DNA of 64,000 bases, from positions 96,001 to 160,000 of the forward strand of contig JANNXA010000009.1 in the NCBI GenBank assembly GCA_031409275.1. The letters are read 5' to 3'. The stretch comes from Planctomycetota bacterium (lineage in GTDB: Bacteria > Planctomycetota > B15-G4 > SIAN01). The notes under the pieces are model-generated. The model had not been told where the DNA came from and searched no databases. It was given only the letters and a program-made list of their open reading frames with translations. Position numbers and translations under genes: made by a program. Shown piece by piece: positions 8,935-48,558 of this stretch. Positions within the stretch are counted from its first letter, which is position 1, and each line of letters opens with the position of its first letter.

Positions 8935-8962
8935 TGGAACCGGTACGGCGCGCTCCGGGGAG
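8935..8962 (+). promoter_or_regulatory. Putative ECF-sigma promoter TGGAAC-N16-GGGG
   Basis: Resembles the motif upstream of the five FG-GAP genes; about 135 nt before GTG9096. Confidence 0.4.
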
Positions 8963-9095: not shown

Positions 9096-10682
9096 GTGGA
9101 TCGGATTCGGACTCGTGGTTGCATCGTCCCCTTGGCCGCCGCGTTGAGCTGCTTCGCCTCCGCGGGCGCCGCGGCTCAAGTCAGCGTCGATTGGGTCGAT
9201 CTGACGCGCGGCAACAGCATCGCCGTCGACGCCGCCAACAACGTCTACACCGTCGACTTCGAACAGGCGCTCGGCGATGAGATCACGCTGACCAAGCGCG
9301 ACGTGAACGGCTCGCTGCTGTGGAACGCGAGCTACGACCAGACGGACGGCACGAAGTGGGAGGCCGCGACGTGGGTGACGGTCGACCACGCGGGCGACGT
9401 GATCGTGACCGGATCGCTGATGTCGGGCTACTCCAACCCGGTCAACGCCGCGAGCATCGCGATGAAGTTCGACGCGAACGGGAACTTCATCTGGCGCCAG
9501 GTCTACGAAAGTCCGTTCGACGGCTCGTACACGCGCAAGTGCCTCGTCGACGCCAACGACAACATCTACGTGCTGGGCATGGGCAGCGGCCCGAACGGCT
9601 TCGTGCCGAAGATCAAGAAGTTCGACTCGAGCGGCAATACGGTCTGGGACTGGTACGACACCACCGGCGTCGGCTTGCCGCTGAACTTCAAGCTCTCGCC
9701 CGACGGCTACCTGCTCGTCACGGGGCGTGGGATCACCGGCAGCGTGAACGGCTACGCGAAGGTCGACCTCGCCGGCCAGACGGTCTGGGGGTTCAACCTC
9801 GCGAGCTACACCATCGGCGACCTCGCCGGCGACTCGCTCGGCAACACCTACGTGCTGCACAGCGAGTACTACCCGAGCCCACGCAACGTCCTGACGAAGC
9901 TCGATGCTGCCGGCGTGCAGCTCTGGGAGACGCGCCATGACCTGCTGGCGCAGCGCATCGAGATCGCGCCCGACGACCTGCCGATCGCCTGCGGCTACCC
10001 GGTGACCGGCTTCGGCGCGGCGTTCCTCAAAGTGGACGCCAACGGCAACGAGATCTGGAAGAACCTTGACGCCGACGGCTCGCTGAGCCTCCTGCTGCAC
10101 GCGCAGATGGTGGTCGACGAGCGCGGCGCGGTCTACCTCGCGGCGGGCACCCTCTTCGACATGGCGATCTGCAAGGTGAACCCCGATGGCAGCTCGTCGT
10201 GGACGGCGACCACCGCAGGCAGCTACGCCTACGGGATGGCGCTCGGCATGCATGACAGCGGCGTCTTCGTGGTCGGCGGCCGGACCGCGCGCCTGATCGA
10301 TGGGACGGGCTCGCCGTGGACCGATCTCGGTCGCGGCTTGGCCGGTGCCGGCGGCATTCCGCGGTTGTGGGGCGCCGGCGATCTCACGCCGAGCAGCAAC
10401 GTCGAGCTCGACCTCGTCGACGCCGCGCCGAATGCGCCGACGCTGCTGGTGGTCGGCGCGAGCCGCATCGACCTGCCGCTCTTTGGCGGCACGCTGGTGC
10501 CGAATCTCGACGCGGTGATCAGCGGTCTCGTCACCGACGGCAGCGGCGCGTGGCAGATCGTCGACACCTGGCCGGACGACGTCGCAGTCGACAGCGAGTT
10601 CTTCGTGCAGACCTGGGTGGTCGACGCTGGCGCACCGCGCAAGCTGGCCGGCAGCAATGCGCTGCGGCTGGTCGCTCGCTGA
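9096..10682 (+). CDS. Secreted SBBP-like beta-propeller protein with shared 121-aa C-terminal domain
   Basis: AAGGAG RBS, GTG start and signal peptide (AAAQ); repeats IAVDAANNVY / VDHAGDVIVTG / K(F/L)DxxGxxxW; C-terminus WTDLG...SNALRL. Confidence 0.85.
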   Translation: MDRIRTRGCIVPLAAALSCFASAGAAAQVSVDWVDLTRGNSIAVDAANNVYTVDFEQALGDEITLTKRDVNGSLLWNASYDQTDGTKWEAATWVTVDHAGDVIVTGSLMSGYSNPVNAASIAMKFDANGNFIWRQVYESPFDGSYTRKCLVDANDNIYVLGMGSGPNGFVPKIKKFDSSGNTVWDWYDTTGVGLPLNFKLSPDGYLLVTGRGITGSVNGYAKVDLAGQTVWGFNLASYTIGDLAGDSLGNTYVLHSEYYPSPRNVLTKLDAAGVQLWETRHDLLAQRIEIAPDDLPIACGYPVTGFGAAFLKVDANGNEIWKNLDADGSLSLLLHAQMVVDERGAVYLAAGTLFDMAICKVNPDGSSSWTATTAGSYAYGMALGMHDSGVFVVGGRTARLIDGTGSPWTDLGRGLAGAGGIPRLWGAGDLTPSSNVELDLVDAAPNAPTLLVVGASRIDLPLFGGTLVPNLDAVISGLVTDGSGAWQIVDTWPDDVAVDSEFFVQTWVVDAGAPRKLAGSNALRLVAR

Positions 10683-38588: not shown

Positions 38589-38689
38589 GACGAGCTCCTG
38601 ATTCTTGGGATGCGCGAGGGAGTCGCGCAGGGGGGGTGCAGTTCTCCGCTCGTGCCCGGGTGGGCGGTCGACGAGCGGTTTCCCAAGAC

Positions 38690-38715
38690 AACCGGAGCTG
38701 GGATCAGGCGTTACA
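38690..38715 (-). promoter_or_regulatory. Putative ECF promoter TGTAAC-N16-GGTT
   Basis: Motif shared upstream of the array genes. Confidence 0.6.
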
Positions 38716-38782
38716 CGCCTCGTCGCCGTGGCTGGCGAACCACGGCGGCGAGGCGCAGGACTGCTTGAATCCCGGTGCTCAC

Positions 38783-39091
38783 TCAGAGGTCGACGTTCAC
38801 GCGGTCCGAGAAGACCACCGGCCCGGTCGGGCTCAGCTTGAGAGCAAGCAGGCCGACGTTGAACCCAAGCAGGGGGTTCTCCGCGTCGGCGTCGAACTCG
38901 TAGCGATGCGTGGCGTCGAACACGTCGAGCGTCAGCACGATCCAGGTCGGGATGCCGTCAATCTCGTCGACCACCAGCATCACCGGATCGCCTGGCGTCC
39001 CGTCATAGACCGAGACGCTGATCGTCTGGCCGGGAGCTGGCTGCGTCGGAGTGATGGAGAGGTTGATCTCGTCGGAGTCGAAGAGGTAGAC
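38783..39091 (-). repeat. 309-nt direct repeat copy A (3' end of paralog 2)
   Basis: 12 mismatches against 40540-40848 by manual alignment. Confidence 0.9.
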
Positions 39092-40348
39092 CTTGCCGGT
39101 GTAGGTGCCGCCGTGAGTCGGCGCGCCGACCACCAACGTCTCGTCACCGATCCCGACCGCCGAGCCGTAGTTGTCCGCCGTCCCCTTGTCGCTGCCGCCG
39201 AGCTCCTGATCCAGGGACCAGCCACGGTTGAACCGCCCCTTGCGGAACGACCAGGCGCGGTTGACGGCGTAGTAGTCGGTTCCCGCCAGCGCCGTCTTGC
39301 CGCGCAATGCCACCGACCGACCGAAGTAGACGTAGTTCAGGGCGATCGGATTGGCGAAGGTGCCGCTCGGCGTCCACGTCCCGTTGCGCAACGTGAAGAA
39401 GTGGACGGCGCCGGTGCCCGCGGGCCCGCCCACGACGTTGTGGCTCGGCGCACCGACGATCAGGTCGACGCCGTCGAGCGCCACCGAGTAGCCGAACGCC
39501 TCGACGTTCGCGCTGGGCCCCCGCAGCTCGAGCGAGTGGGTCCAATTCGTGGCGCCCTTGGTCCAGATCGACACGCTGCCCTCGTTCGCGAAGCCGAGGC
39601 TGCCCACCTCGCCGGGCGTTCCGACCAGCGCCGTCGTGCCGTCGAACGCGAGGCTGCTGCCGGCGTAGTCGTAGCCGCTCCCGTCCGGGTCGAGCAGCGT
39701 CGTCGTCTCGTTCCAGCTTCGATTGGGTCGGTCGTACTCGAAGACGTGGACCTGCCCGGAGTTGATGCCCAGCGTGGTGTTCTCGTAGGGCGCGCCCACC
39801 AGCAGCACATCGTCGTGCACCGCCAGAGCGCGGCCGAACTGCATGTTGGTGAGAGCGACCGTCGACGTCAGGCGCGCTTCATGGATCCAACTCCCGGTGG
39901 ACGGCCGGCTGCCGCGGAAGAGGTGCACGGCGCCGCAGTCGACCGCGGTTGCCGAATCCTCGTAGCGCGCCGACACCGCGATCACCTCGCCGTGGATCGC
40001 GACGGCATAGCCGAAGGCGCCGTTGGTCTCGGGCGTCGACGAGGTGAGCGTGGCATCGAGGAGCCACTCCTGCGTCGCCGGGTCGAAACGGAAGACCCAT
40101 GTCTTCCCGGCGCTCGAGGCCGTTCCGCCCTCGCCGCGACCACCGATGACCATCAGGTCGCCGTCGATCGCGATCCTGTCGCCGAAGTACTCATTGCTGA
40201 TCGGCACCGGCGAGGTCAGTTGCTGCACCTCGACCGCCTGCGCCGAGGCGGTCGCCGGATGGAGCGCGAAGGAGGCCACGGCGATCGCCGCGCTGACGGC
40301 AACGAGCGAGCGGGAACGGACAAAGAAGGTCGCGAGCGGACGGTGCAT
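38783..40348 (-). CDS. Secreted FG-GAP beta-propeller, paralog 2
   Basis: GGAG RBS before ATG40348; FG-GAP repeats; C-terminal domain. Confidence 0.9.
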   Translation of the reverse strand: MHRPLATFFVRSRSLVAVSAAIAVASFALHPATASAQAVEVQQLTSPVPISNEYFGDRIAIDGDLMVIGGRGEGGTASSAGKTWVFRFDPATQEWLLDATLTSSTPETNGAFGYAVAIHGEVIAVSARYEDSATAVDCGAVHLFRGSRPSTGSWIHEARLTSTVALTNMQFGRALAVHDDVLLVGAPYENTTLGINSGQVHVFEYDRPNRSWNETTTLLDPDGSGYDYAGSSLAFDGTTALVGTPGEVGSLGFANEGSVSIWTKGATNWTHSLELRGPSANVEAFGYSVALDGVDLIVGAPSHNVVGGPAGTGAVHFFTLRNGTWTPSGTFANPIALNYVYFGRSVALRGKTALAGTDYYAVNRAWSFRKGRFNRGWSLDQELGGSDKGTADNYGSAVGIGDETLVVGAPTHGGTYTGKVYLFDSDEINLSITPTQPAPGQTISVSVYDGTPGDPVMLVVDEIDGIPTWIVLTLDVFDATHRYEFDADAENPLLGFNVGLLALKLSPTGPVVFSDRVNVDL

Positions 40349-40436
40349 GGTGTGCTCCAGGAGATTCATCACGGCAGGAGGATCGGTTAGGGCAGCCGGG
40401 CGAAGCCGGTTGGAGATACTCGGACAGACTCGTAGG

Positions 40437-40461
40437 TCCCGATCGCGCGGACGGCGTTCCA
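40437..40461 (-). promoter_or_regulatory. Putative ECF promoter TGGAAC-N15-GGGA (variant)
   Basis: Motif shared upstream of the array genes; weaker match. Confidence 0.45.
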
Positions 40462-40539
40462 TGGCGGCGCGAAAGTCACGGCACGCCCCGGAGTGGAACG
40501 GAGAGTGGTGCGGGCGGGGCCGTCGCGGCCGGGCCGCAC

Positions 40540-40848
40540 TCAGAGATCGACGTTCACGCGGTCCGAGAAGACCACCGGACCGGTCGGGCTCAGCTTGAGA
40601 GCAAGCACGCCGACGTTGAACCCAAGCAGGGGGTTCTCCGCGTCGGCGTCGAACTCGAAGCGATGGTTCGCGGCGAACGTGTCGAGCGTCAGCACGATCC
40701 AGGTCGGGATGCCGTCAATCTCGTCGACCACCAGCATCACCGGATCGCCTGGCGTCCCGTCATAGACCGAGACGCTGATCGTCTGGCCGGGAGCTGGCTG
40801 CGTCGGCGTGATGGAGAGGTTGATCTCGTCGGAATCGAAGAGGTAGAC
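40540..40848 (-). repeat. 309-nt direct repeat copy B (3' end of paralog 3)
   Basis: Near-identical to 38783-39091. Confidence 0.9.
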
Positions 40849-42108
40849 GCCGCCGTGATCCGCGAAGAACGGGATGTCGATGCCGGGAGCCCCGACCAGC
40901 AGTTGCTCGCCGCTGATGGCGAGCGCTGCACCGTAGTCATCCGCAAAGACGAGGCTGCTGGCGCCGAGTTCCTGGTCGAAGAACCAGCCCTTCTGGAAGC
41001 GGCCCTTGCGGTAGGACGCAGCCTGATTCGCGTAGCCGGTTCCAGCCATGGCGATCTTCCCCTCGATCGTGACGGAGCTGCCGTAGGCCTCGAACACCCA
41101 CGGGTCGGGGTTCTCGAAAGTGCCGCTGTGCTGCCAGCTGCCGTTGTGCAGCGTGAAGAAGTGGACGCCGCCGCAGTAGGCCTTTCCGGAGCTGCCGCTC
41201 CAACCCGGCGCGCCAACGATCATGTCGACGCCGTTGACGCGGTCGAGCGCCACCGCCGCGCCGAACTGCTCGCCGCCGACCGGCGCTGGCGACACGAGTT
41301 CGCGCGTGTGCGTCCAGGTCGAGGCGCTCTTGGTCCAGAGCGAGACGGTGCCGGTGTTGAAGGCGCCGGCACCGGTCACTTCGCCGGGTGTTCCAACGAG
41401 TGCGGTCGTGCCATCGAAGGCCACCGACGCGCCGGCGTAGTCGAAGCCCGAGGCGTCGGGATCGAGCAGCGGTGCCGACTCGTTCCAGACCTGGCCGACG
41501 CTGTCGTACTCGAAGACGTGAACCTGCCCCGTGCTGGCGCCCATCGCCGTGTACTCGTACGGCGCGCCGGCCAGCAGCACGTCGCCATGCAGCGCCAGCG
41601 ACTTGCCGAACTCGTTGTTGGACGTCGCCACGGTCGAGGTCAGCCGCTGTTGGTGGACCCAGGTGCCGCCGACCGCGCTGCCGCCGCGGAAGAGGTGGAC
41701 CGCACCGCAATCGGACGCGCTGCTCGAGTCCTCGTAGCGCGCTGCGACCGCGATGACGTCGCCGTGGATCGCGACCGCGCTACCGAACGCACCGTTGGTC
41801 TCGGGCGTCGAAGAGAGGAGCGTCGTCTCGAACTGCCACTCTTCGGCGACCGGATCCCACCGATAGACGACGGCGACCCCTTCGCTGCCGGCGTAGCCGC
41901 CGGTGCTCCTGCCGCCAACCACCAGCAGATCTCCGTCGACGGCCATCGCGGAGCCGAAACGGTGGTAGGGCACGGGCACCGGCTCCTTGAGCACCTCCTG
42001 CTCGATGGCCTGCGCCCGCGCACCGTCGCCGAGCGCCACCGAGGCGCAAAGCGCCGCCAGCCCCGGCATGCCGCGCGAACGAAGGAAACGGCGGACCGAG
42101 CGATTCAT
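40540..42108 (-). CDS. Secreted FG-GAP beta-propeller, paralog 3
   Basis: AGGAG RBS before ATG42108; signal peptide (ARAQ); FG-GAP repeats. Confidence 0.9.
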   Translation of the reverse strand: MNRSVRRFLRSRGMPGLAALCASVALGDGARAQAIEQEVLKEPVPVPYHRFGSAMAVDGDLLVVGGRSTGGYAGSEGVAVVYRWDPVAEEWQFETTLLSSTPETNGAFGSAVAIHGDVIAVAARYEDSSSASDCGAVHLFRGGSAVGGTWVHQQRLTSTVATSNNEFGKSLALHGDVLLAGAPYEYTAMGASTGQVHVFEYDSVGQVWNESAPLLDPDASGFDYAGASVAFDGTTALVGTPGEVTGAGAFNTGTVSLWTKSASTWTHTRELVSPAPVGGEQFGAAVALDRVNGVDMIVGAPGWSGSSGKAYCGGVHFFTLHNGSWQHSGTFENPDPWVFEAYGSSVTIEGKIAMAGTGYANQAASYRKGRFQKGWFFDQELGASSLVFADDYGAALAISGEQLLVGAPGIDIPFFADHGGVYLFDSDEINLSITPTQPAPGQTISVSVYDGTPGDPVMLVVDEIDGIPTWIVLTLDTFAANHRFEFDADAENPLLGFNVGVLALKLSPTGPVVFSDRVNVDL

Positions 42109-42191
42109 GGTGAACTCCTGCGGAGTGGCGTCACGCGTTGGCGACGCAGGGAGGGTTGGGGGGGGTGGTGCACGCGAATCGGCGCCTCTAC

Positions 42192-42217
42192 ACCCGAGGA
42201 TTTGCCGCCGCGTTACA
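42192..42217 (-). promoter_or_regulatory. Putative ECF promoter TGTAAC-N16-GGGT
   Basis: Motif shared upstream of the array genes. Confidence 0.65.
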
Positions 42218-42321
42218 GCCGCAGCGTCATTTCCTTCGAATCGCCCTCCGCAACGCACGAGGGGCGCCCGGTCGCCCGGACGCCCCTCTCACCGTCGCTT
42301 CGCCACTAAGACGGCGTCAAC

Positions 42322-43899
42322 TCACAGGTCGATGTCGATCGCCTGCGAACCGACCAGCGGACCGCCCGCACCGATCTTCCAGGCGCGCACGGTCACCGTG
42401 CTGCCGAAGGCGGGATCAGGCGCGTCGAGCTGCAGGCTCCACGAGGAGTCGACCGCGAACACGTCGTAGAGCAGCGGAAGGAAGAGCGGGATCCCGTCGA
42501 TCGCCTCGACCGCCAGCAGCAGCGGCGAGCCGGGCGCGCCGCGATGCGCTTCGAGGTCGATCGTGGCGCCCGGCGCCGGCTGCGTCGGCGTCACCGTCAG
42601 CGTGAACTCGGCGGCGTCATAGAAGAAGAGCGCCCCGGTGTCGCGGCCGTTGCTGGTGTTGGCCCAGCGCGACGCAACGACGATGTCGGAGTTCGCGATG
42701 TTCAGGGCACCGCCGAAGTTCTCCTCGGCGATCGTCGGTCCCGCCTGCAGCTCGCTCTCGAAGTGCCACGGCCCGTTCTTCTTCTTGCCGAGCCGCCAGG
42801 TCCACACGCTGCCGATGTGGCCGCCGCCGGTCACCTCGTTCGGCGCGCCCGCGACGAACAGCCCGCCCTGCAGTTCGACCGCCGTCCCGAAGCCGCTGTT
42901 GTAGGCGAGCGTCGGCGAGTCGAAGCTCTGCTCGAGGTTGAAGAGTCCGGTGACCGTGTCCTTCACGAAGACGTAGGCGCGGCCGGCCAGCGAGTTCGCG
43001 CCGATCGTCTCCGTCGGTGCGCCGACGGCGATCCGATTGCCGTCGAGCGCAAGCGAGCTGCCGAAGTTCGCGCTCTGCTGCGGGACGTTCGCGCGGAGTT
43101 CCTGCCCTTGCGTCCAGGTCGTTCCGCTGATCGAGAAGAGCTCGACGGTGCCGGCGTAGTTCGTCGCGCCAGCCGCCCCGTTCGGCGCGGCCACCAGCAA
43201 CGTGGTCCCATCGAAGTCGATCGTCCGGCCGAAGAAGGAGGCGCTGCTGCCGTTGCTGTCGACGAGCTGCGCCTCGAAGGCGAAGAGCCCGGTCACGGCA
43301 TCGCGTCGGCACACCTGGACTGACCCGAGACCGGCGCCCGGCGCGCCGACCAGCAGCAGATCGCCCTTCAACGCCAGCCCGTAGCCGAAGCCTTCGCCGG
43401 CAATCGGCGCGTTCGAATCGAGCTTCTGCACTTCGACGAAGAGTCCGGTGATCGCGTCGCGCTCGAACAGGTAGACCGAACCCGCATCGCCGAGGTTGTT
43501 GACGACGTTGCGTGGCGCGCTGACGGCGAGGCGATCGCCATCGACGGCGACCGTCGCGCCGAACGTCTCGAAACTGGCGTAGTCGCTCGCGAAGAGCTTC
43601 TGCTGGTAGCTCCACGCACCGGTCACGGGATCGCGAACGTGGACTGTCGCGGCTCCGTGACCGCCGATCGGGTAGTAGGAGCTGTCGTTGGGAGCGCCGA
43701 CCACCATGAGGTCGCCGTCGATCGCGAACGCGGAACTCCAGTAGTTGCTGTCGGAGATGTAGGGACAGATCAACGACGACTGCTCGTTCGCCTGCGCGCG
43801 CGCATCGCCGGCGGCGATGAGAGCGGCGGCGACCGGAAGCGCGGCCGGCGCGATCCTGCGGACGACGCGTGAAAGCAGGCGATTGGCCGAAGCGGACAT
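42322..43899 (-). CDS. Secreted FG-GAP beta-propeller, paralog 4
   Basis: GAGGAG RBS before ATG43899; signal peptide (ARAQ); FG-GAP repeats. Confidence 0.9.
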   Translation of the reverse strand: MSASANRLLSRVVRRIAPAALPVAAALIAAGDARAQANEQSSLICPYISDSNYWSSAFAIDGDLMVVGAPNDSSYYPIGGHGAATVHVRDPVTGAWSYQQKLFASDYASFETFGATVAVDGDRLAVSAPRNVVNNLGDAGSVYLFERDAITGLFVEVQKLDSNAPIAGEGFGYGLALKGDLLLVGAPGAGLGSVQVCRRDAVTGLFAFEAQLVDSNGSSASFFGRTIDFDGTTLLVAAPNGAAGATNYAGTVELFSISGTTWTQGQELRANVPQQSANFGSSLALDGNRIAVGAPTETIGANSLAGRAYVFVKDTVTGLFNLEQSFDSPTLAYNSGFGTAVELQGGLFVAGAPNEVTGGGHIGSVWTWRLGKKKNGPWHFESELQAGPTIAEENFGGALNIANSDIVVASRWANTSNGRDTGALFFYDAAEFTLTVTPTQPAPGATIDLEAHRGAPGSPLLLAVEAIDGIPLFLPLLYDVFAVDSSWSLQLDAPDPAFGSTVTVRAWKIGAGGPLVGSQAIDIDL

Positions 43900-43974
43900 G
43901 GCGGAACTCCTCACAAGGACGATCAGGGAAAGGGGCGCCGGCCCGAGGGATGACTCCGCGGCGGCAGCAGTAGC

Positions 43975-44000
43975 ACCCGAACGCGGCGGCCGCCGTTACT
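43975..44000 (-). promoter_or_regulatory. Putative ECF promoter AGTAAC-N16-GGGT
   Basis: Motif shared upstream of the array genes; overlaps the stop codon of the pseudogene. Confidence 0.6.
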
Positions 44001-45136
44001 GAAGTCGCTTCCCGGCCACCGGCGCCCGGGCGACGCCCGCGCCGATCTTCCAGGCGCGCACCGACACGGTAACCCCGAACAGCGGGTCGGGAGCGTCGAG
44101 CGCCGCGTGCCACGCGTGGTCGCTGCCGAAGACGTCGGTCAGGATCGGCACGAAGAGCGGAGCCCCGTCGATCGCCTCGACCATCAACAACAGCGGGTCG
44201 CCCGGGTCGCCGCGAGTGACGTCGAGGTCGATGTTCGCGCCGGCGGCAGGCTGCGTCGGATGGACCGTGAGCACGAGTTCGGCGGCGTGGAAGAGGAAGA
44301 GCTCGCCGGAGTCGCGGCCGCTCGTCGGGTCGGTGTAGCGCGCCGCCGTCACCGCCTCGCGGTCGTCGAGCGCGACGGCATCGCCGAAGTTGTCGGCCAC
44401 CAAACCGAGGCTCGACCCGAGCTCGGTGTCGAAGTGCCACGGGCCGTTCTTCTGCTTGCCGAGGCGGTCGACCCACGCCGATCCGGAGTGGCTGCCACTG
44501 ACCCGATCTTGCGGAGCGCCGCCGACCCACATGCCGCCGTTCAGCGCGAGCGCCTGGCCGAAGTGCATCCCGACCTGCGCCTTCGGCGATGGCAGATGCT
44601 GCTCGTGGCTGAAGAGGCCGGCGGTGCGCTTGAAGACGTCGGCGGCGCCGACGCTCGCGACACCGGTTGCATCTTCCTCGGGCGAACCGATCGCCAGGCG
44701 ATCGCTATCGAGCGCGATCGCGCTGGCGAAGCAGAGATCGTCCTGCGCCACGGTGGGCAGCGGTTCCTGTCCCTGCGTCCACGTGGTGCCGCTGACCGTC
44801 CACCGATCGACCGCTCCGCCGTGTCACTTTGCCATGCGACGGCGCTGCCGCAGCCGAAGTCGGCGTCACCATCGTTGTCATCGAGCTGCGTCTCGCCGTT
44901 CCACACTCCCGTCACGGCGTCGCGACGGAAGACGTAGGCCGCGCCGGAACGGCCGATCTCGTTCACTGCCTTGCCGATCGCACCGATCGACACGACGTCG
45001 CCGTCGAGCGCCAGCGCATTGCCGGCGTAGGCATCGGGCACGTCGTAGGGCGGAACGATCGCGCCCTGCTCGTAAGCCTGCGCCGGCAAGGAGGCGTTTC
45101 CGACGAGCGCCTCGAGCTGGAACGACGCGCGGCCAT
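43996..45136 (-). pseudogene. FG-GAP paralog 5, internally deleted and frameshifted
   Basis: GGAG + ATG45136; homologous pieces are spread over ORFs 44541-45194 and 43996-44751 in different frames; about 1.14 kb versus about 1.55 kb for the intact paralogs. Confidence 0.75.
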
Positions 45137-45192
45137 GGTGGACTCCGTGAGCGAGTGAAGCGGCGTGCATCTCGCATCGGCTCGCAGGTGGC

Positions 45193-45218
45193 ACCCGACG
45201 GCAACGCGCGGCGTTACA
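45193..45218 (-). promoter_or_regulatory. Putative ECF promoter TGTAAC-N16-GGGT
   Basis: Motif shared upstream of the array genes. Confidence 0.65.
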
Positions 45219-45251: not shown

Positions 45252-46391
45252 TCAGCTCGTGCCGTCGAACAGCCCACCCTGATGCGGCCCCGGACGGCGA
45301 AAGGCGGCGGTCGAGATGCCGCGCTCGCGCATGCCGGCGAGACCAGCGCGCCGCACCGCCAAGCCGAAGAGCTGTTCGAGCTGGCGCGCCCACTCCCCGT
45401 CGCCGCGGAAGCGCGTGCCGAACTCCGCGTCGTTGAGTGCGCCGCCGCGAAGCTCGCGGATGCGATCGAGCACCTTGCTGCGCCGATCGGGCTGGTGCAG
45501 CACCAGCCATTCGTCGAAGAGCTGCTTCAAGCCGTACGGCAGTCGCAAGAGCTGCCAGCTCGCCATCGTCGCGCCCGCGTCGCGCGCGGCGGCGACGATC
45601 GCCGGCATCTCGTGATCGGTCAGGCCGGGAATCACCGGCGCCACCAACACGCCGACCGGAATGCCCGCCGCCGCGAGCTGCGCGATCGCCTCGAGCCGCT
45701 TCGCCGGCCGCGACGCCCGTGGCTCGAGCTCCGCAGCGAGCTGCGCATCGAGGGTCGTCACGCTGAGGAAGACCTGCGCCGCGTCGTGCGCCGCAAGGCT
45801 GGCGAGCAGGTCGGCGTCGCGCGTGACCAACGCGTTCTTCGTGACGATGCCGACCGGGTTCCTGAAGTCAGCCAGCACTTCGAGGCAGCCGCGGGTGATC
45901 CGCAGCAGCCGTTCGACCGGCTGGTAGCAGTCGGTGACGCCCGACAGCGCCAGCAGCCGCGGCCGCCAGCTCCTCTTCATCAGCTCGCCGCGCAGCAGCT
46001 CGGGCGCGCGCCGCTTCACCAGGATCTTCGTCTCGAAGTCGAGGCCGGCGGACAGGCCGAGGTACTCATGGGTCGGGCGCGCGTAGCAGTAGACGCAGCC
46101 GTGCTCGCAACCGCGGTACGGGTTGACGCTGACGTCGAAGGGCAGGTCGGGGCTGTCGTTCTCCGACAGGATCGAACGCGAGGCGTCCTCGAAGAACTGC
46201 GTGCGCGGCGCCGGGATCGCGTCGTCACCGGCGGCGCGCGCCGCCGCTGCGACTCCTTCGAGGTCGACCTCGATCTGACGCGCGGTGAAGCGATCGGCAG
46301 GATTGGACGCGACCCCGCGACCGCGCGCCGCGAACGCCTTCGCGTCGCTCGCCGATTCGGTCGGTTCACGAGGATCCGCCACGCCGCTCAT
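45252..46391 (-). CDS. PA0069/Rv2578c-family radical SAM protein (SplB-like)
   Basis: SPDLPF, VNPYRGCEHGCVYCYARPTHEYL, TDCYQPVE and APVIPGL. Confidence 0.92.
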   Translation of the reverse strand: MSGVADPREPTESASDAKAFAARGRGVASNPADRFTARQIEVDLEGVAAAARAAGDDAIPAPRTQFFEDASRSILSENDSPDLPFDVSVNPYRGCEHGCVYCYARPTHEYLGLSAGLDFETKILVKRRAPELLRGELMKRSWRPRLLALSGVTDCYQPVERLLRITRGCLEVLADFRNPVGIVTKNALVTRDADLLASLAAHDAAQVFLSVTTLDAQLAAELEPRASRPAKRLEAIAQLAAAGIPVGVLVAPVIPGLTDHEMPAIVAAARDAGATMASWQLLRLPYGLKQLFDEWLVLHQPDRRSKVLDRIRELRGGALNDAEFGTRFRGDGEWARQLEQLFGLAVRRAGLAGMRERGISTAAFRRPGPHQGGLFDGTS

Positions 46392-46444: not shown

Positions 46445-47425
46445 TCAGCGCGCCGCGTACGCGAGGATCGCGGCCGGTTTGCCGTCGCGAGCCGGCGCCG
46501 CGACGAAGAGCAGGGCTAGCTCCGGCACGAAGAGCGCCGTGCGGGCGCCGGCCGCGGTGGCGATCGAGGCGCTCGGCGCGAGCTCGCCCTTTGCGCCGCG
46601 CTCGAGCAGCGTGACGACCCCTTCACCGCATGCGACGTAGACGCGGTGGCGCGCGGCATCGACGAAGAGGTCGTCCGGATCGCCCCCGATCGGGAGCTCC
46701 TGGAGCAGCGCGCCGCTCGCGGCATCGAGCGCGAGGAGGCGTGCCGGCTCCCGGCAACCGATCAGCACTCGGCCGGCGGCGGCATCGAGCGCCATCGGAT
46801 AGTTGCGTGCGGCGGACGTGACCGGCCAGGTCGCGATCACCTTGCGCTGCTTGCGATCGACGACGGCGACGTGGCGTGCGTCGGGAACGTTGACGTAGAC
46901 GCGCGTGCCATCGGGATCGAGCTGCAGCGACTCGGCGTGGCCGGCGAGCGCGACCACCGCCACCCGCTCCTGCTTGGCAACGTCGACGACCGCGAGCCCC
47001 TCCTCGGTCCCGATCCACAGCAGCTCCCCGCCCTCGTCGACGCGCACGTTGTCGGCATCGCCGCCGACCGCGAGGCGCTTCTTCTCGACCAGGGTCGCCG
47101 CGTCATGCACGTGGAGCAGGCCATCGCCGCCGGTGGTGAACAGCAGCTCCTCGCGCGCCGGCAGGTAGATGATCCCTTGCGGTTCATCGAGCTTCGGAAT
47201 CGTCCCGACGCGACGTCCGACGAGCGGCTCGCTGCTGCCCCACTCGATGACCTCGACGCTGCCGTTGGCAAGCGCGGCGACGGCCAGGTGGCGGCGCTTC
47301 GCGTCCCAGGCGAGGTGGTCGATGCGCCCGCTGACGCCGGGCAGCTCGACGCGCGCGACCGACACGAGTTCGGCCGATTCGCCGCGGCAGAACGTCAACG
47401 CCGCGATCAGCAGCGCGGCGTTCAC
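46445..47425 (-). CDS. YncE/YVTN-like beta-propeller protein
   Basis: GRIDHLA, EPQGI, DADNVR, HAESLQL, NYPMALD and GARTA; GTGA overlap with the DHS-like gene. Confidence 0.8.
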   Translation of the reverse strand: MNAALLIAALTFCRGESAELVSVARVELPGVSGRIDHLAWDAKRRHLAVAALANGSVEVIEWGSSEPLVGRRVGTIPKLDEPQGIIYLPAREELLFTTGGDGLLHVHDAATLVEKKRLAVGGDADNVRVDEGGELLWIGTEEGLAVVDVAKQERVAVVALAGHAESLQLDPDGTRVYVNVPDARHVAVVDRKQRKVIATWPVTSAARNYPMALDAAAGRVLIGCREPARLLALDAASGALLQELPIGGDPDDLFVDAARHRVYVACGEGVVTLLERGAKGELAPSASIATAAGARTALFVPELALLFVAAPARDGKPAAILAYAAR

Positions 47426-48558
47426 GCCGGCTTCCACGCGGCGTCGAGCAGCTTCATCGCGGCGGGGAGCCGGTCGTAGAGCCGCATCGGCTTGCGGCGC
47501 AGCGTCGTATCGGAGAGCAGCGCCTGCGTGAGGATCGGCAGCGCGATCGTCACGTCGGTGCGCAGGTAGACGCTCTTGCTCTCCACGCACTCGATCGACG
47601 TCTTGCCCCAGGTGTGCCCTTCGCCCGCGCTGCACGACGAGAGCGCACCGTTGTCGACGACGTCGACGCAGATCTGCACGTCGATGTCGAAGCCGCGGGC
47701 GTCGACCTCGAGGATCTGCGAAAGGAGCGGCTCACCTTGCAGCGTGTAGTTCTTCGGCACGCCGCCACCGAAGATCCAGACGCTCGCCTGCCCCTGTTTG
47801 CCGCGACCGCCCTCGGCTCGCGACCAGTGCTGCAGCGCCGCCATCGAATAGACGTCGCGCGCGACGTCGAGGCGGAACTTGAAGCCCTTGGGATCCTCGC
47901 GCTCCATCTTCACGACGTTCAGGTAGATCGAGCCGTCCTGCGGCGCGCCAACGAAGACCGGCACGCCATGCCGGTAGCAGGTGGCCAGCAGCGACGGCCG
48001 CGTGATCTGCTTGTGCTCTTCGATCTGCGCGACCACGCGGCCGATCTCGTAGTGCAGCTCGGGCGTCGTCATCGAGCGCTGGAACGGTCGCGTCTTCAGC
48101 AGCTCGCAGAAGAAGCGGTCGGTGTCGAGCAGCACCTCCTCGTCGAAACCGAGGTCGTAGATGCGGATGATGCGTGCCTTGCGGTACGCGCCATCGTCGC
48201 CGGCCGGGTTCACCTCGTGGATCAGGTGGCCGAGCGTGCGATGGAGATCGTGGTAGAGGTTGGCACCCGTCGTCGTGAGGCTCGAGATCCAGCCCGCCTC
48301 GATGGCCGGGATGATCGACGACTGGTGCATGCCGGCGGGCGTCATCGCGCCCGACACGGTCGCGAACACCGCGTGGTCCTCCTCGACGCTGGCGCGCATC
48401 AGGCGATGCGCTTCGCGCAGCCCGCGGCCGGCGAAGGCGGGGAAGTGGTTCTCGAGCAGCTCGCGCGGCGTCTCACGCCCCGAAAGTGGGGCGGGATCGA
48501 CCGGTCGGACGCGCGGCTTCGCGGACTTTGCAGGCTTTGCGGGCTTCGTCTTGCTCAT
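47422..48558 (-). CDS. Deoxyhypusine synthase-like protein (possible homospermidine synthase)
   Basis: SGAMTPAG, TTGANLYHD, RIYD, GGGVPKNY and GALSS...EGHTWGK with the catalytic Lys position retained. Confidence 0.88.
   Translation of the reverse strand: MSKTKPAKPAKSAKPRVRPVDPAPLSGRETPRELLENHFPAFAGRGLREAHRLMRASVEEDHAVFATVSGAMTPAGMHQSSIIPAIEAGWISSLTTTGANLYHDLHRTLGHLIHEVNPAGDDGAYRKARIIRIYDLGFDEEVLLDTDRFFCELLKTRPFQRSMTTPELHYEIGRVVAQIEEHKQITRPSLLATCYRHGVPVFVGAPQDGSIYLNVVKMEREDPKGFKFRLDVARDVYSMAALQHWSRAEGGRGKQGQASVWIFGGGVPKNYTLQGEPLLSQILEVDARGFDIDVQICVDVVDNGALSSCSAGEGHTWGKTSIECVESKSVYLRTDVTIALPILTQALLSDTTLRRKPMRLYDRLPAAMKLLDAAWKPA

Follow-up and report, generated by a model that had tools for sequence, protein, structure and literature searches.

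A putative extracytoplasmic function sigma factor promoter shared by dispersed genes for secreted FG-GAP proteins in a planctomycete, and a candidate kinase-linked sigma factor family for its recognition

The window analysed here is a stretch of 64,000 nucleotides (nt), positions 96001–160000 of contig C9 (JANNXA010000009.1) from the genome of a Planctomycetota bacterium (GCA_031409275.1; hereafter G000; 5.59 Mb, 69% G+C). Its minus strand carries, between 37047 and 45136, four intact genes for secreted FG-GAP_2 proteins (P1–P4, 32–65% identical among themselves) and one pseudogene (Table 1). The original prediction had placed in front of each of these five paralogs a promoter of the type read by extracytoplasmic function (ECF) sigma factors. 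The five minus-strand strings that it named were all found where it had put them, and their second boxes end 55, 74, 82, 87 (66 if an alternative ATG is used) and 100 nt before the start codons, in agreement with the 55–105 nt that it gave. Spacers and flanks do differ between the paralogs, whose upstream regions have in common only the boxes and one 18-nt match. Conservation of boxes and spacing holds for four strong sites but not for the one at 40461, which is degenerate and lacks the invariant T's, and the second box, previously written GGGTG, is correctly CGG(G/A/T)T(G/C), its invariant C having been left out.

The motif GTAAC(G/A)-N14-CGG(G/A/T)T(G/C) is real and occurs far above chance. 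The pattern GTAAC[AG]-N14-CGG[GAT]T[GC] is present 14 times in G000 at this spacing, versus 0–3 times at each of 17 other spacings. With a weight matrix trained on 21 sites from outside G000, 12 of the 15 matches of at least 16 bits obtained for a spacer of 16 were intergenic, in the sense orientation and at most 200 nt before a start codon, whereas at eight other spacers none of the 1–8 matches was placed upstream; the training sites had been found with the pattern derived from G000, so the core letters of this matrix are not independent, but position and spacing are. A second matrix, seeded on the five window sites, retrieved 15 matches of at least 17 bits, and 13 of them were intergenic, in sense and at most 200 nt from a start; its iteration favoured upstream sites, and 3.3% of random positions fall in such a placement. 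The excess over background and the orientation anticipated genome-wide were both borne out. The distance from box to start is 32–100 nt in 13 of the 14 called targets of G000; gene calls outside Pfam came from a simple in-house caller (4046 genes), and starts can be misplaced. Counting from the −35 box, position 16 is an invariant C, and all 21 training sites have G at position 17, a letter fixed by the search pattern, with C found there in some homologue loci.

In G000 the motif lies upstream of about 14 genes, mostly for secreted FG-GAP or LamG proteins plus one orphan membrane Ser/Thr kinase. Outside the window, sites precede seven more FG-GAP genes, a gene for a LamG protein, the kinase gene, a gene for a LuxR-type regulator (C50:114515; 20 bits, 182 nt upstream) and one unscanned gene. 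Array genes belong to the regulon, which is larger than the array and includes the kinase gene. Within the array, membership stands for three intact genes with strong sites, while another strong site precedes the pseudogene and the remaining one is decayed. A crude signal-peptide rule was passed by 10 of the 14 called targets and by 580 of 3933 genes (P = 3e-6). Only one of the 32 kinase genes of G000 has a site, which is retained by its orthologues in the related genomes G002, G003 and G004.

Strict matches at this spacing stood at 13/15 within the genus and at 1/24 outside it. Four congeners contain 24 exact matches, 20 of them in front of genes for FG-GAP proteins (15, assigned by eye), kinases (2), ferredoxins (2) or a LamG protein (1), and the boxes are retained while the spacers diverge. 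The ortholog of P4 has a site in G001, G003 and G004; G004 also has a single gene of the P2/P3 type, with its site, and an ortholog of P1 preceded by TGTAAC-N15-CGGATG. A member of another genus, G007, has one site, before an FG-GAP gene, and outside family f1 exact matches are mostly in coding sequence or at background, though a few of them precede secreted genes. The fixed spacing, the intergenic position upstream and in sense, and the retention in congeners uphold the proposal of an ECF-type promoter common to a regulon of secreted proteins.

Some sites lie at the margins of this set. A highly conserved gene for a ferredoxin-like protein of 115 amino acids (aa) has a site in G001 and G004 (L053, L065) and a TGAAC variant with the same spacing in G000 (C55:~171300), and is a candidate target that is not secreted. 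A site in G003, before a glyoxalase gene and a broken sigma gene, was discarded as it has no close counterpart in G000. The string TGGAAC-N16-GGGGA preceding the GTG at 9096 in the window, which had been considered a similar site, lies at 8935–8961 (plus strand), about 135 nt upstream, and scores 0.7 bits; it is not a member. This string is rare in shuffled sequences (2 of 100) although off-motif, and might belong to another ECF.

The promoters of ShbA (CGTAAC-N16-CGATGA; PMC12019637) and BldN (CGTAAC-N16-CGTTGA; PMC2375139) from Streptomyces are close in geometry to the motif. Its GTAAC −35 box is the one described for ShbA, BldN and SigD (ECF40), and its positions 18–21 (G, G/A/T, T, G/C), counted from the −35 box, fall on the G-A-T-G or G-T-T-G of ShbA and BldN. 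In contrast, these promoters have C instead of G at position 17, the invariant C at position 16 is an extra of the motif found here, and the motif has no −10 box beginning with CG after N16. Because the −10 box is in register with those of ShbA and BldN, differing at positions 16–17, the sequence reads as a typical ECF arrangement with an upstream edge particular to it, and the −10 box is not the unusual one that had been supposed.

We found 72 sigma-70 matches in G000. The original prediction expected the motif in front of an autoregulated ECF gene; no strong site precedes the sigma genes listed, the best within 300 nt upstream having 9.9 bits among those listed out of 69 places, at least five of them without a called gene. 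The gene at C9:25560 encodes an orphan planctomycete ECF located on the same contig as the window and without a kinase neighbour. Directly behind it are four tandem paralogous genes for secreted proteins of about 335 aa (C9:26350–31192), none with the motif (best, 3.5 bits). In G002, FG-GAP genes preceded by a TGTAACG site at 50–57 nt lie back to back with the genes of two sigmas approximately 70% identical to C9:25560, and a kinase gene is on the other side; therefore, the C9:25560 family became the better lead. Of the 84 loci of this family, 61 have a kinase gene no more than 3.5 kb away; the best NCBIfam match of the family is TIGR02984 (Sig-70_plancto1; E = 2e-37, 128.4 bits, below the cut-off of 183.75). 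Region 4.2 of ShbA, BldN and SigD aligns well with that of the family, although these proteins are from another phylum and overall similarity is low (E from 1e-8 to 2e-5). In the portions of the literature available to us, ShbA has no anti-sigma factor in its context, SigD uses RsdA, and neither is reported to be linked to a kinase.

Among 82 family loci whose region 4.2 was complete, the site was present in 6 of 24 with Val or Thr at the position that reads −34 and in none of the other 58, a pattern of residues that was chosen after some of the site-bearing loci had been seen. For replication the pattern was fixed beforehand and applied to 80 metagenome loci, minus six duplicates, one repeat from the first set and one incomplete sigma. 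The site appeared in 7 of 43 Val/Thr loci, with seven sites at this gap and 0–1 at 11 others (P about 5e-6). Within 1.5 kb, 4 of 24 Val/Thr loci of the C9:25560 family had a site, versus 0 of 86 loci of three rival ECFs. In other lineages the sigmas closest to C9:25560 are encoded in compact modules together with a kinase gene, the motif and an FG-GAP gene. Locus L401 has a complete one within 5.6 kb; its kinase is 982 aa long and its sigma 65% identical to C9:25560, and the site and an FG-GAP gene are both there. L399 has the same module, with a broken kinase frame. At L410, L447 and L459 the sites face kinase genes and, because of this, kinase self-induction may be a family trait. A quick, midpoint-rooted tree of 155 sigmas placed C9:25560 in a clade of 12 rows (Shimodaira-Hasegawa-like approximate likelihood ratio test, 98), in which L401, L203, L239 and L399, with the site beside an FG-GAP gene, are four of the five deepest branches and six orphan sigmas form a derived tip.

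Other searches in the family were less productive. De novo expectation maximization on the 260 nt upstream of the 84 family sigmas returned only a TCGA codon bias, and the motif was not recovered. A relaxed pattern applied upstream of all called genes gave little excess in 40 more distant loci that were fetched later; a relaxed pattern set post hoc gave 13 sites at gap 15 before genes for products with a hydrophobic N-terminus, versus 0–2 at other gaps, which is suggestive only. Asp at the position reading −13 was not significantly associated with C at position 17 (P = 0.27). Nine family loci (L243–L245, L255, L258, L266, L283, L298 and L303) have neighbouring sites with −35 boxes of the form GTCAC, GTGAC or G(A/G)GAC and a C(C/G)GAT −10 box; these variants roughly track the region 4.2 residues, a weak, post hoc relation.

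The kinase with a site, C44:89552, starts with a helical segment; beyond it come a Hanks domain, predicted to be cytoplasmic, a single hydrophobic helix (410–430) and an outer part resembling tetratricopeptide repeats (TPR). This kinase is found in the order sigma (C44:86055), hemN, site and kinase in G000, G002, G003 and G004. Region 2.2 of the C9:25560 family reads E-S-x-S-D-L-x-Q-S, with Ser48 in 72, Ser50 in 70 and Ser55 in all of the 84 sequences, and with Asp51 kept. The reviews that we could consult in part name a serine as the phosphorylation site of ECF59 and describe EcfP as lacking the acidic region 2.2 motif and needing phosphorylation to bind core polymerase (PMC8999054, PMC8103513). 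Judging from these residues, phosphorylation of a serine is plausible in the C9:25560 family too, although acidic residues remain. When kinase and sigma were co-folded, the score was 0.43, versus 0.00 for the best control, with runs agreeing in at least 45% of contacts and a partner predicted local distance difference test (pLDDT) of at least 60. The mark applied was passed in 116 of the 157 solved pairs and in 2 of the 215 mismatched ones, with scores of 0.60 or less in only 18 of these solved pairs and in both mismatches; the models thus lend weak support to the pair.

Taken as a whole, we consider it on balance probable that the motif is the −35/−10 promoter of a planctomycete ECF, most likely C9:25560, that would be switched on by a membrane Ser/Thr kinase. 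That the motif would be an ECF promoter is the part we hold with high confidence; that its reader would belong to the C9:25560 family appears likely from the genomic loci, and activation of this sigma by kinase C44:89552 in particular is an evenly balanced proposition. The ancestral state would have been a compact module of kinase, motif, FG-GAP gene and sigma, which would have come apart in this genus: the sigma gene would have moved behind a TatD/monooxygenase operon and the kinase gene, with one target, behind hemN, while the FG-GAP target would have multiplied with its promoter kept. Kinase C44:89552 would sense an outside cue and phosphorylate a serine in region 2.2 of the sigma, after which the holoenzyme would initiate at a separate promoter for every secreted propeller gene, about 8 nt past the second box by the ShbA numbering. 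Transcription of the kinase gene as well would create a positive feedback through the kinase in place of sigma autoregulation. Separate transcription of the paralogs, and not as an operon, is plausible, and the gene behind the decayed site at 40461 may be read through from its neighbour.

Several observations weigh against this explanation. A site precedes just 11 of the 59 scorable FG-GAP genes of G000 (the PF01839 search scored 150 of 661 candidates), the locus of the sigma itself (C9:25560–26180) lacks one, and G000 has two further paralogs of the same family. The link between site and family was replicated, but the residue contrast on its own was not (7/43 versus 1/29, the latter an Ile variant; Fisher P = 0.13), even if the two sets pooled give 13/67 versus 1/87 (P = 9e-5); moreover, a single group of 59 rows, with weak support, contains every one of the 14 loci that have the site, and residue and ancestry are confounded. 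The residue code from mutagenesis of Todor et al. (PMC7776599), in the part accessible to us, assigns to Thr at the position reading −34 a preference for G, and thus predicts G at −34 here, yet BldN has Thr at this position and reads GTAAC. For the −13/−12 position the code gives a GG preference to Lys but none to His. Two congeners also count on this side. G001 (94% complete, 470 contigs) has no sigma at the syntenic place and no family member above 33% identity, and its kinase is gone too, yet it keeps the ferredoxin site and one strong site, which precedes an FG-GAP gene internally shortened to 352 aa. Losing sigma, kinase and most targets together is compatible with a module, but in that case the sites still present have to be relics or serve a different sigma. 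G001 has also lost secreted clusters and has a split ECF of the extension type (L138, L140, L326, L342). In G003 (84% complete) no ortholog of the sigma was found, the block running off the contig end, and there are two paralogs of its family.

We consider it unlikely that the reader of this promoter is another sigma from G000, be it C50:161135, C30:67972 or one of the ECFs whose C-terminal extension is long (C7:96899, C9:20371). By the residue code C50:161135 was the first candidate: it has Lys/Met at the −31/−34 positions and Lys at −13/−12, the only residue that prefers G at −13 in the mutagenesis table (PMC7776599); besides, 38 of 41 genomes have it, G001 among them. Two findings led us to drop it: the site is missing from its loci, and TATAAT-like boxes lie upstream in several of them. 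Furthermore, its residues are unchanged in families in which the motif is close to background frequency. At the −34 position C30:67972 has Ile; it occurs in all four congeners. No ortholog of C9:20371 was found in G003, and that of G001 is split. None of the 30 + 28 + 28 homologue loci of the rival ECFs has a site with the right spacing within 1.5 kb, and these sigmas would leave unexplained the modules with kinase, site, FG-GAP gene and sigma. In its own right, C50:161135–161890 (L042:5139–5891) is an unusual single-copy ECF found in those 38 of the 41 genomes of the order, 81–94% identical within the genus, and likely a core regulator.

An operator role for the motif, with a transcription factor such as the LuxR-type response regulator C50:114515 binding to it and transcription from another promoter, is distinctly improbable. 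The strong site upstream of that regulator and two sites that read as a loose palindrome, GTAAC...GTTAC, agree with an operator, but the motif is asymmetric and strictly oriented with the geometry of the ShbA and BldN promoters, the regulator has a strong site in none of the four congeners (one weak, 11.9 bits), and no sigma-70 consensus promoter was found between 36000 and 47000 of the window. That the boxes are relics of gene duplication, or that their TAA is simply an upstream stop codon, is very hard to sustain. Most targets are indeed FG-GAP paralogs, one site precedes a pseudogene, and in 2 of 15 sites the TAA of the −35 box is the stop of the called upstream gene; against this, the TAA is not a stop in the other 13, proteins and upstream regions have diverged to the extent given above and, decisively enough to refute the relic origin in large part, genes of other kinds (LamG, kinase, ferredoxin), unrelated to these, have the motif upstream as well. 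There is hardly any probability left for the RpoD/RpoS-like paralog C44:86055, to which the conserved order with hemN, site and kinase in four genomes would point. Its region 4.2 is of the RpoD type, which reads TTGACA, and in G001, G005 and G006 the sigma-hemN pair occurs without kinase or site.

Planctomycetes have dozens of ECF sigmas, many of them beside Ser/Thr kinases. The C9:25560 family resembles groups ECF59, ECF61, ECF62 and ECF217, in which a planctomycete ECF neighbours a membrane Ser/Thr kinase with one helix (Casas-Pastor et al., 2021; PMC7826278), as happens at 61 of the 84 family loci though not at the orphan gene C9:25560, with Ser/Thr around the acidic motif of region 2.2, where the family has serines, and, in ECF59s2, with a kinase that often has TPR, similar to the outer part of C44:89552. 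In the portion of that source available to us, the predicted promoter of ECF59 has “TC in −35”, different from the GTAAC described here, and those of ECF61 and ECF62 are “not conserved”, whereas here we infer a full promoter of two boxes with its targets; likewise, genes are linked in the kinase-associated groups, whereas sigma, kinase and targets are unlinked in this genus. ECF59, ECF61 and ECF62 would lack a usable promoter because these sigmas seem not to be autoregulated and the region searched for promoters was the one in front of the sigma gene. The working is likely the same as in EcfP/PknT from Vibrio parahaemolyticus and EcfK/PknS from Xanthomonas citri, both of ECF43, with a sigma without anti-sigma activated through phosphorylation by a Hanks-type membrane kinase (PMC8999054, PMC8103513, PMC13147305). 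From what the accessible text indicates, however, ECF43 is a different sigma family, with STTA in place of DAED versus an E-S-x-S-D with acidic residues here, and in our case the targets are secreted propeller proteins plus the kinase gene, and phosphorylation is only predicted.

None of the passages on TAAC in the supplement of Casas-Pastor et al. (11 among those listed; PMC7826278) is described as concerning a planctomycetal group, and our literature searches, whose coverage was incomplete such that existing work may describe the sigma group or the promoter, retrieved no paper with this motif in planctomycetes. Kinase-linked ECFs are known, and for the class we found no published target promoter. 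Tentatively, and with slightly less than even confidence, we propose that G-T-(A/C/G)-A-C, 15 nt and C-(G/C/T)-G-(A/G/T)-T make up the first promoter code that can be read for a widespread family of ECFs, activated by kinases, from planctomycetes. Each sigma-kinase pair of this family would ancestrally drive one neighbouring secreted protein, and in this genus one module would have been dispersed into a genome-wide regulon that amplifies itself via the kinase and not the sigma. Taking the neighbouring secreted gene as the place to search yielded a promoter, a named candidate sigma, a named candidate kinase and about 14 targets. It would show how a local module of three genes grew into a dispersed regulon, and makes phosphorylation-dependent transcription in the phylum testable by a simple reporter, although the organism is uncultured, which limits the immediate impact.

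The features of the array are compiled in Table 1. The last frame of the pseudogene ends at a TAA within the −35 box of the next site (43974–44000). A scan of the minus strand for intrinsic terminators found none.

Table 1. Genes, putative promoter sites and hairpins of the FG-GAP array (window coordinates; bits and genome-wide ranks of strong sites are from the other-genome matrix).
Feature	Coordinates	Strand	Evidence or remarks
Strong site TGTAAC-N15-CGGGTG, upstream of pseudogene	45192..45218	-	19.8 bits, rank 11
FG-GAP pseudogene: frameshift near 44820, large internal deletion, altered C-terminus	43996..45136	-	blastx versus intact paralogs
Strong site AGTAAC-N15-CGGGTG	43974..44000	-	16.6 bits, rank 14
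Secreted FG-GAP_2 propeller protein P4, 525 aa	42322..43899	-	PF14312, E = 5e-42; signal peptide by crude rule
GC-rich hairpin without U-tract between P4 and next site	42258..42288	-	possible terminator
Strong site TGTAAC-N15-CGGGTG	42191..42217	-	24.3 bits, rank 1
Secreted FG-GAP_2 propeller protein P3, 522 aa	40540..42108	-	PF14312, E = 1e-37
Degenerate site TGGAAC-N14-CGGGAC, both invariant T's missing	40436..40461	-	5.4-5.8 bits
Secreted FG-GAP_2 propeller protein P2, 521 aa	38783..40348	-	closest paralog P3, 63-65% identical
GC-rich hairpin without U-tract abutting the -35 box of the 38715 site	38716..38756	-	
Strong site TGTAAC-N15-CGGTTG	38689..38715	-	24.2 bits, rank 2
Secreted FG-GAP_2 protein P1, 513 aa	37047..38588	-	PF14312, E = 6e-69

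P1 is predicted, with modest confidence, to be a seven-bladed beta-propeller followed by a C-terminal domain of about 95 aa; its single-sequence model (mean pLDDT of 58) has 28 strands and its fold matches are beta-propellers, the C-terminal domain not being resolved. The last 95 aa or so are common to P1–P4 and have no match in Pfam or NCBIfam, and many secreted proteins of G000 have similar tails. Upstream of the array there is a deoxyhypusine synthase-like gene (47422–48558, minus strand) and, immediately adjacent to the array, a radical SAM gene (45252–46391, minus strand) that occupies the same position in G001 and G004. The 3′ ends of the genes for P2 and P3 (38783–39070 and 40540–40830) are nearly identical at the DNA level, whereas the remainder encodes proteins about 63% identical, which suggests a recent gene conversion.

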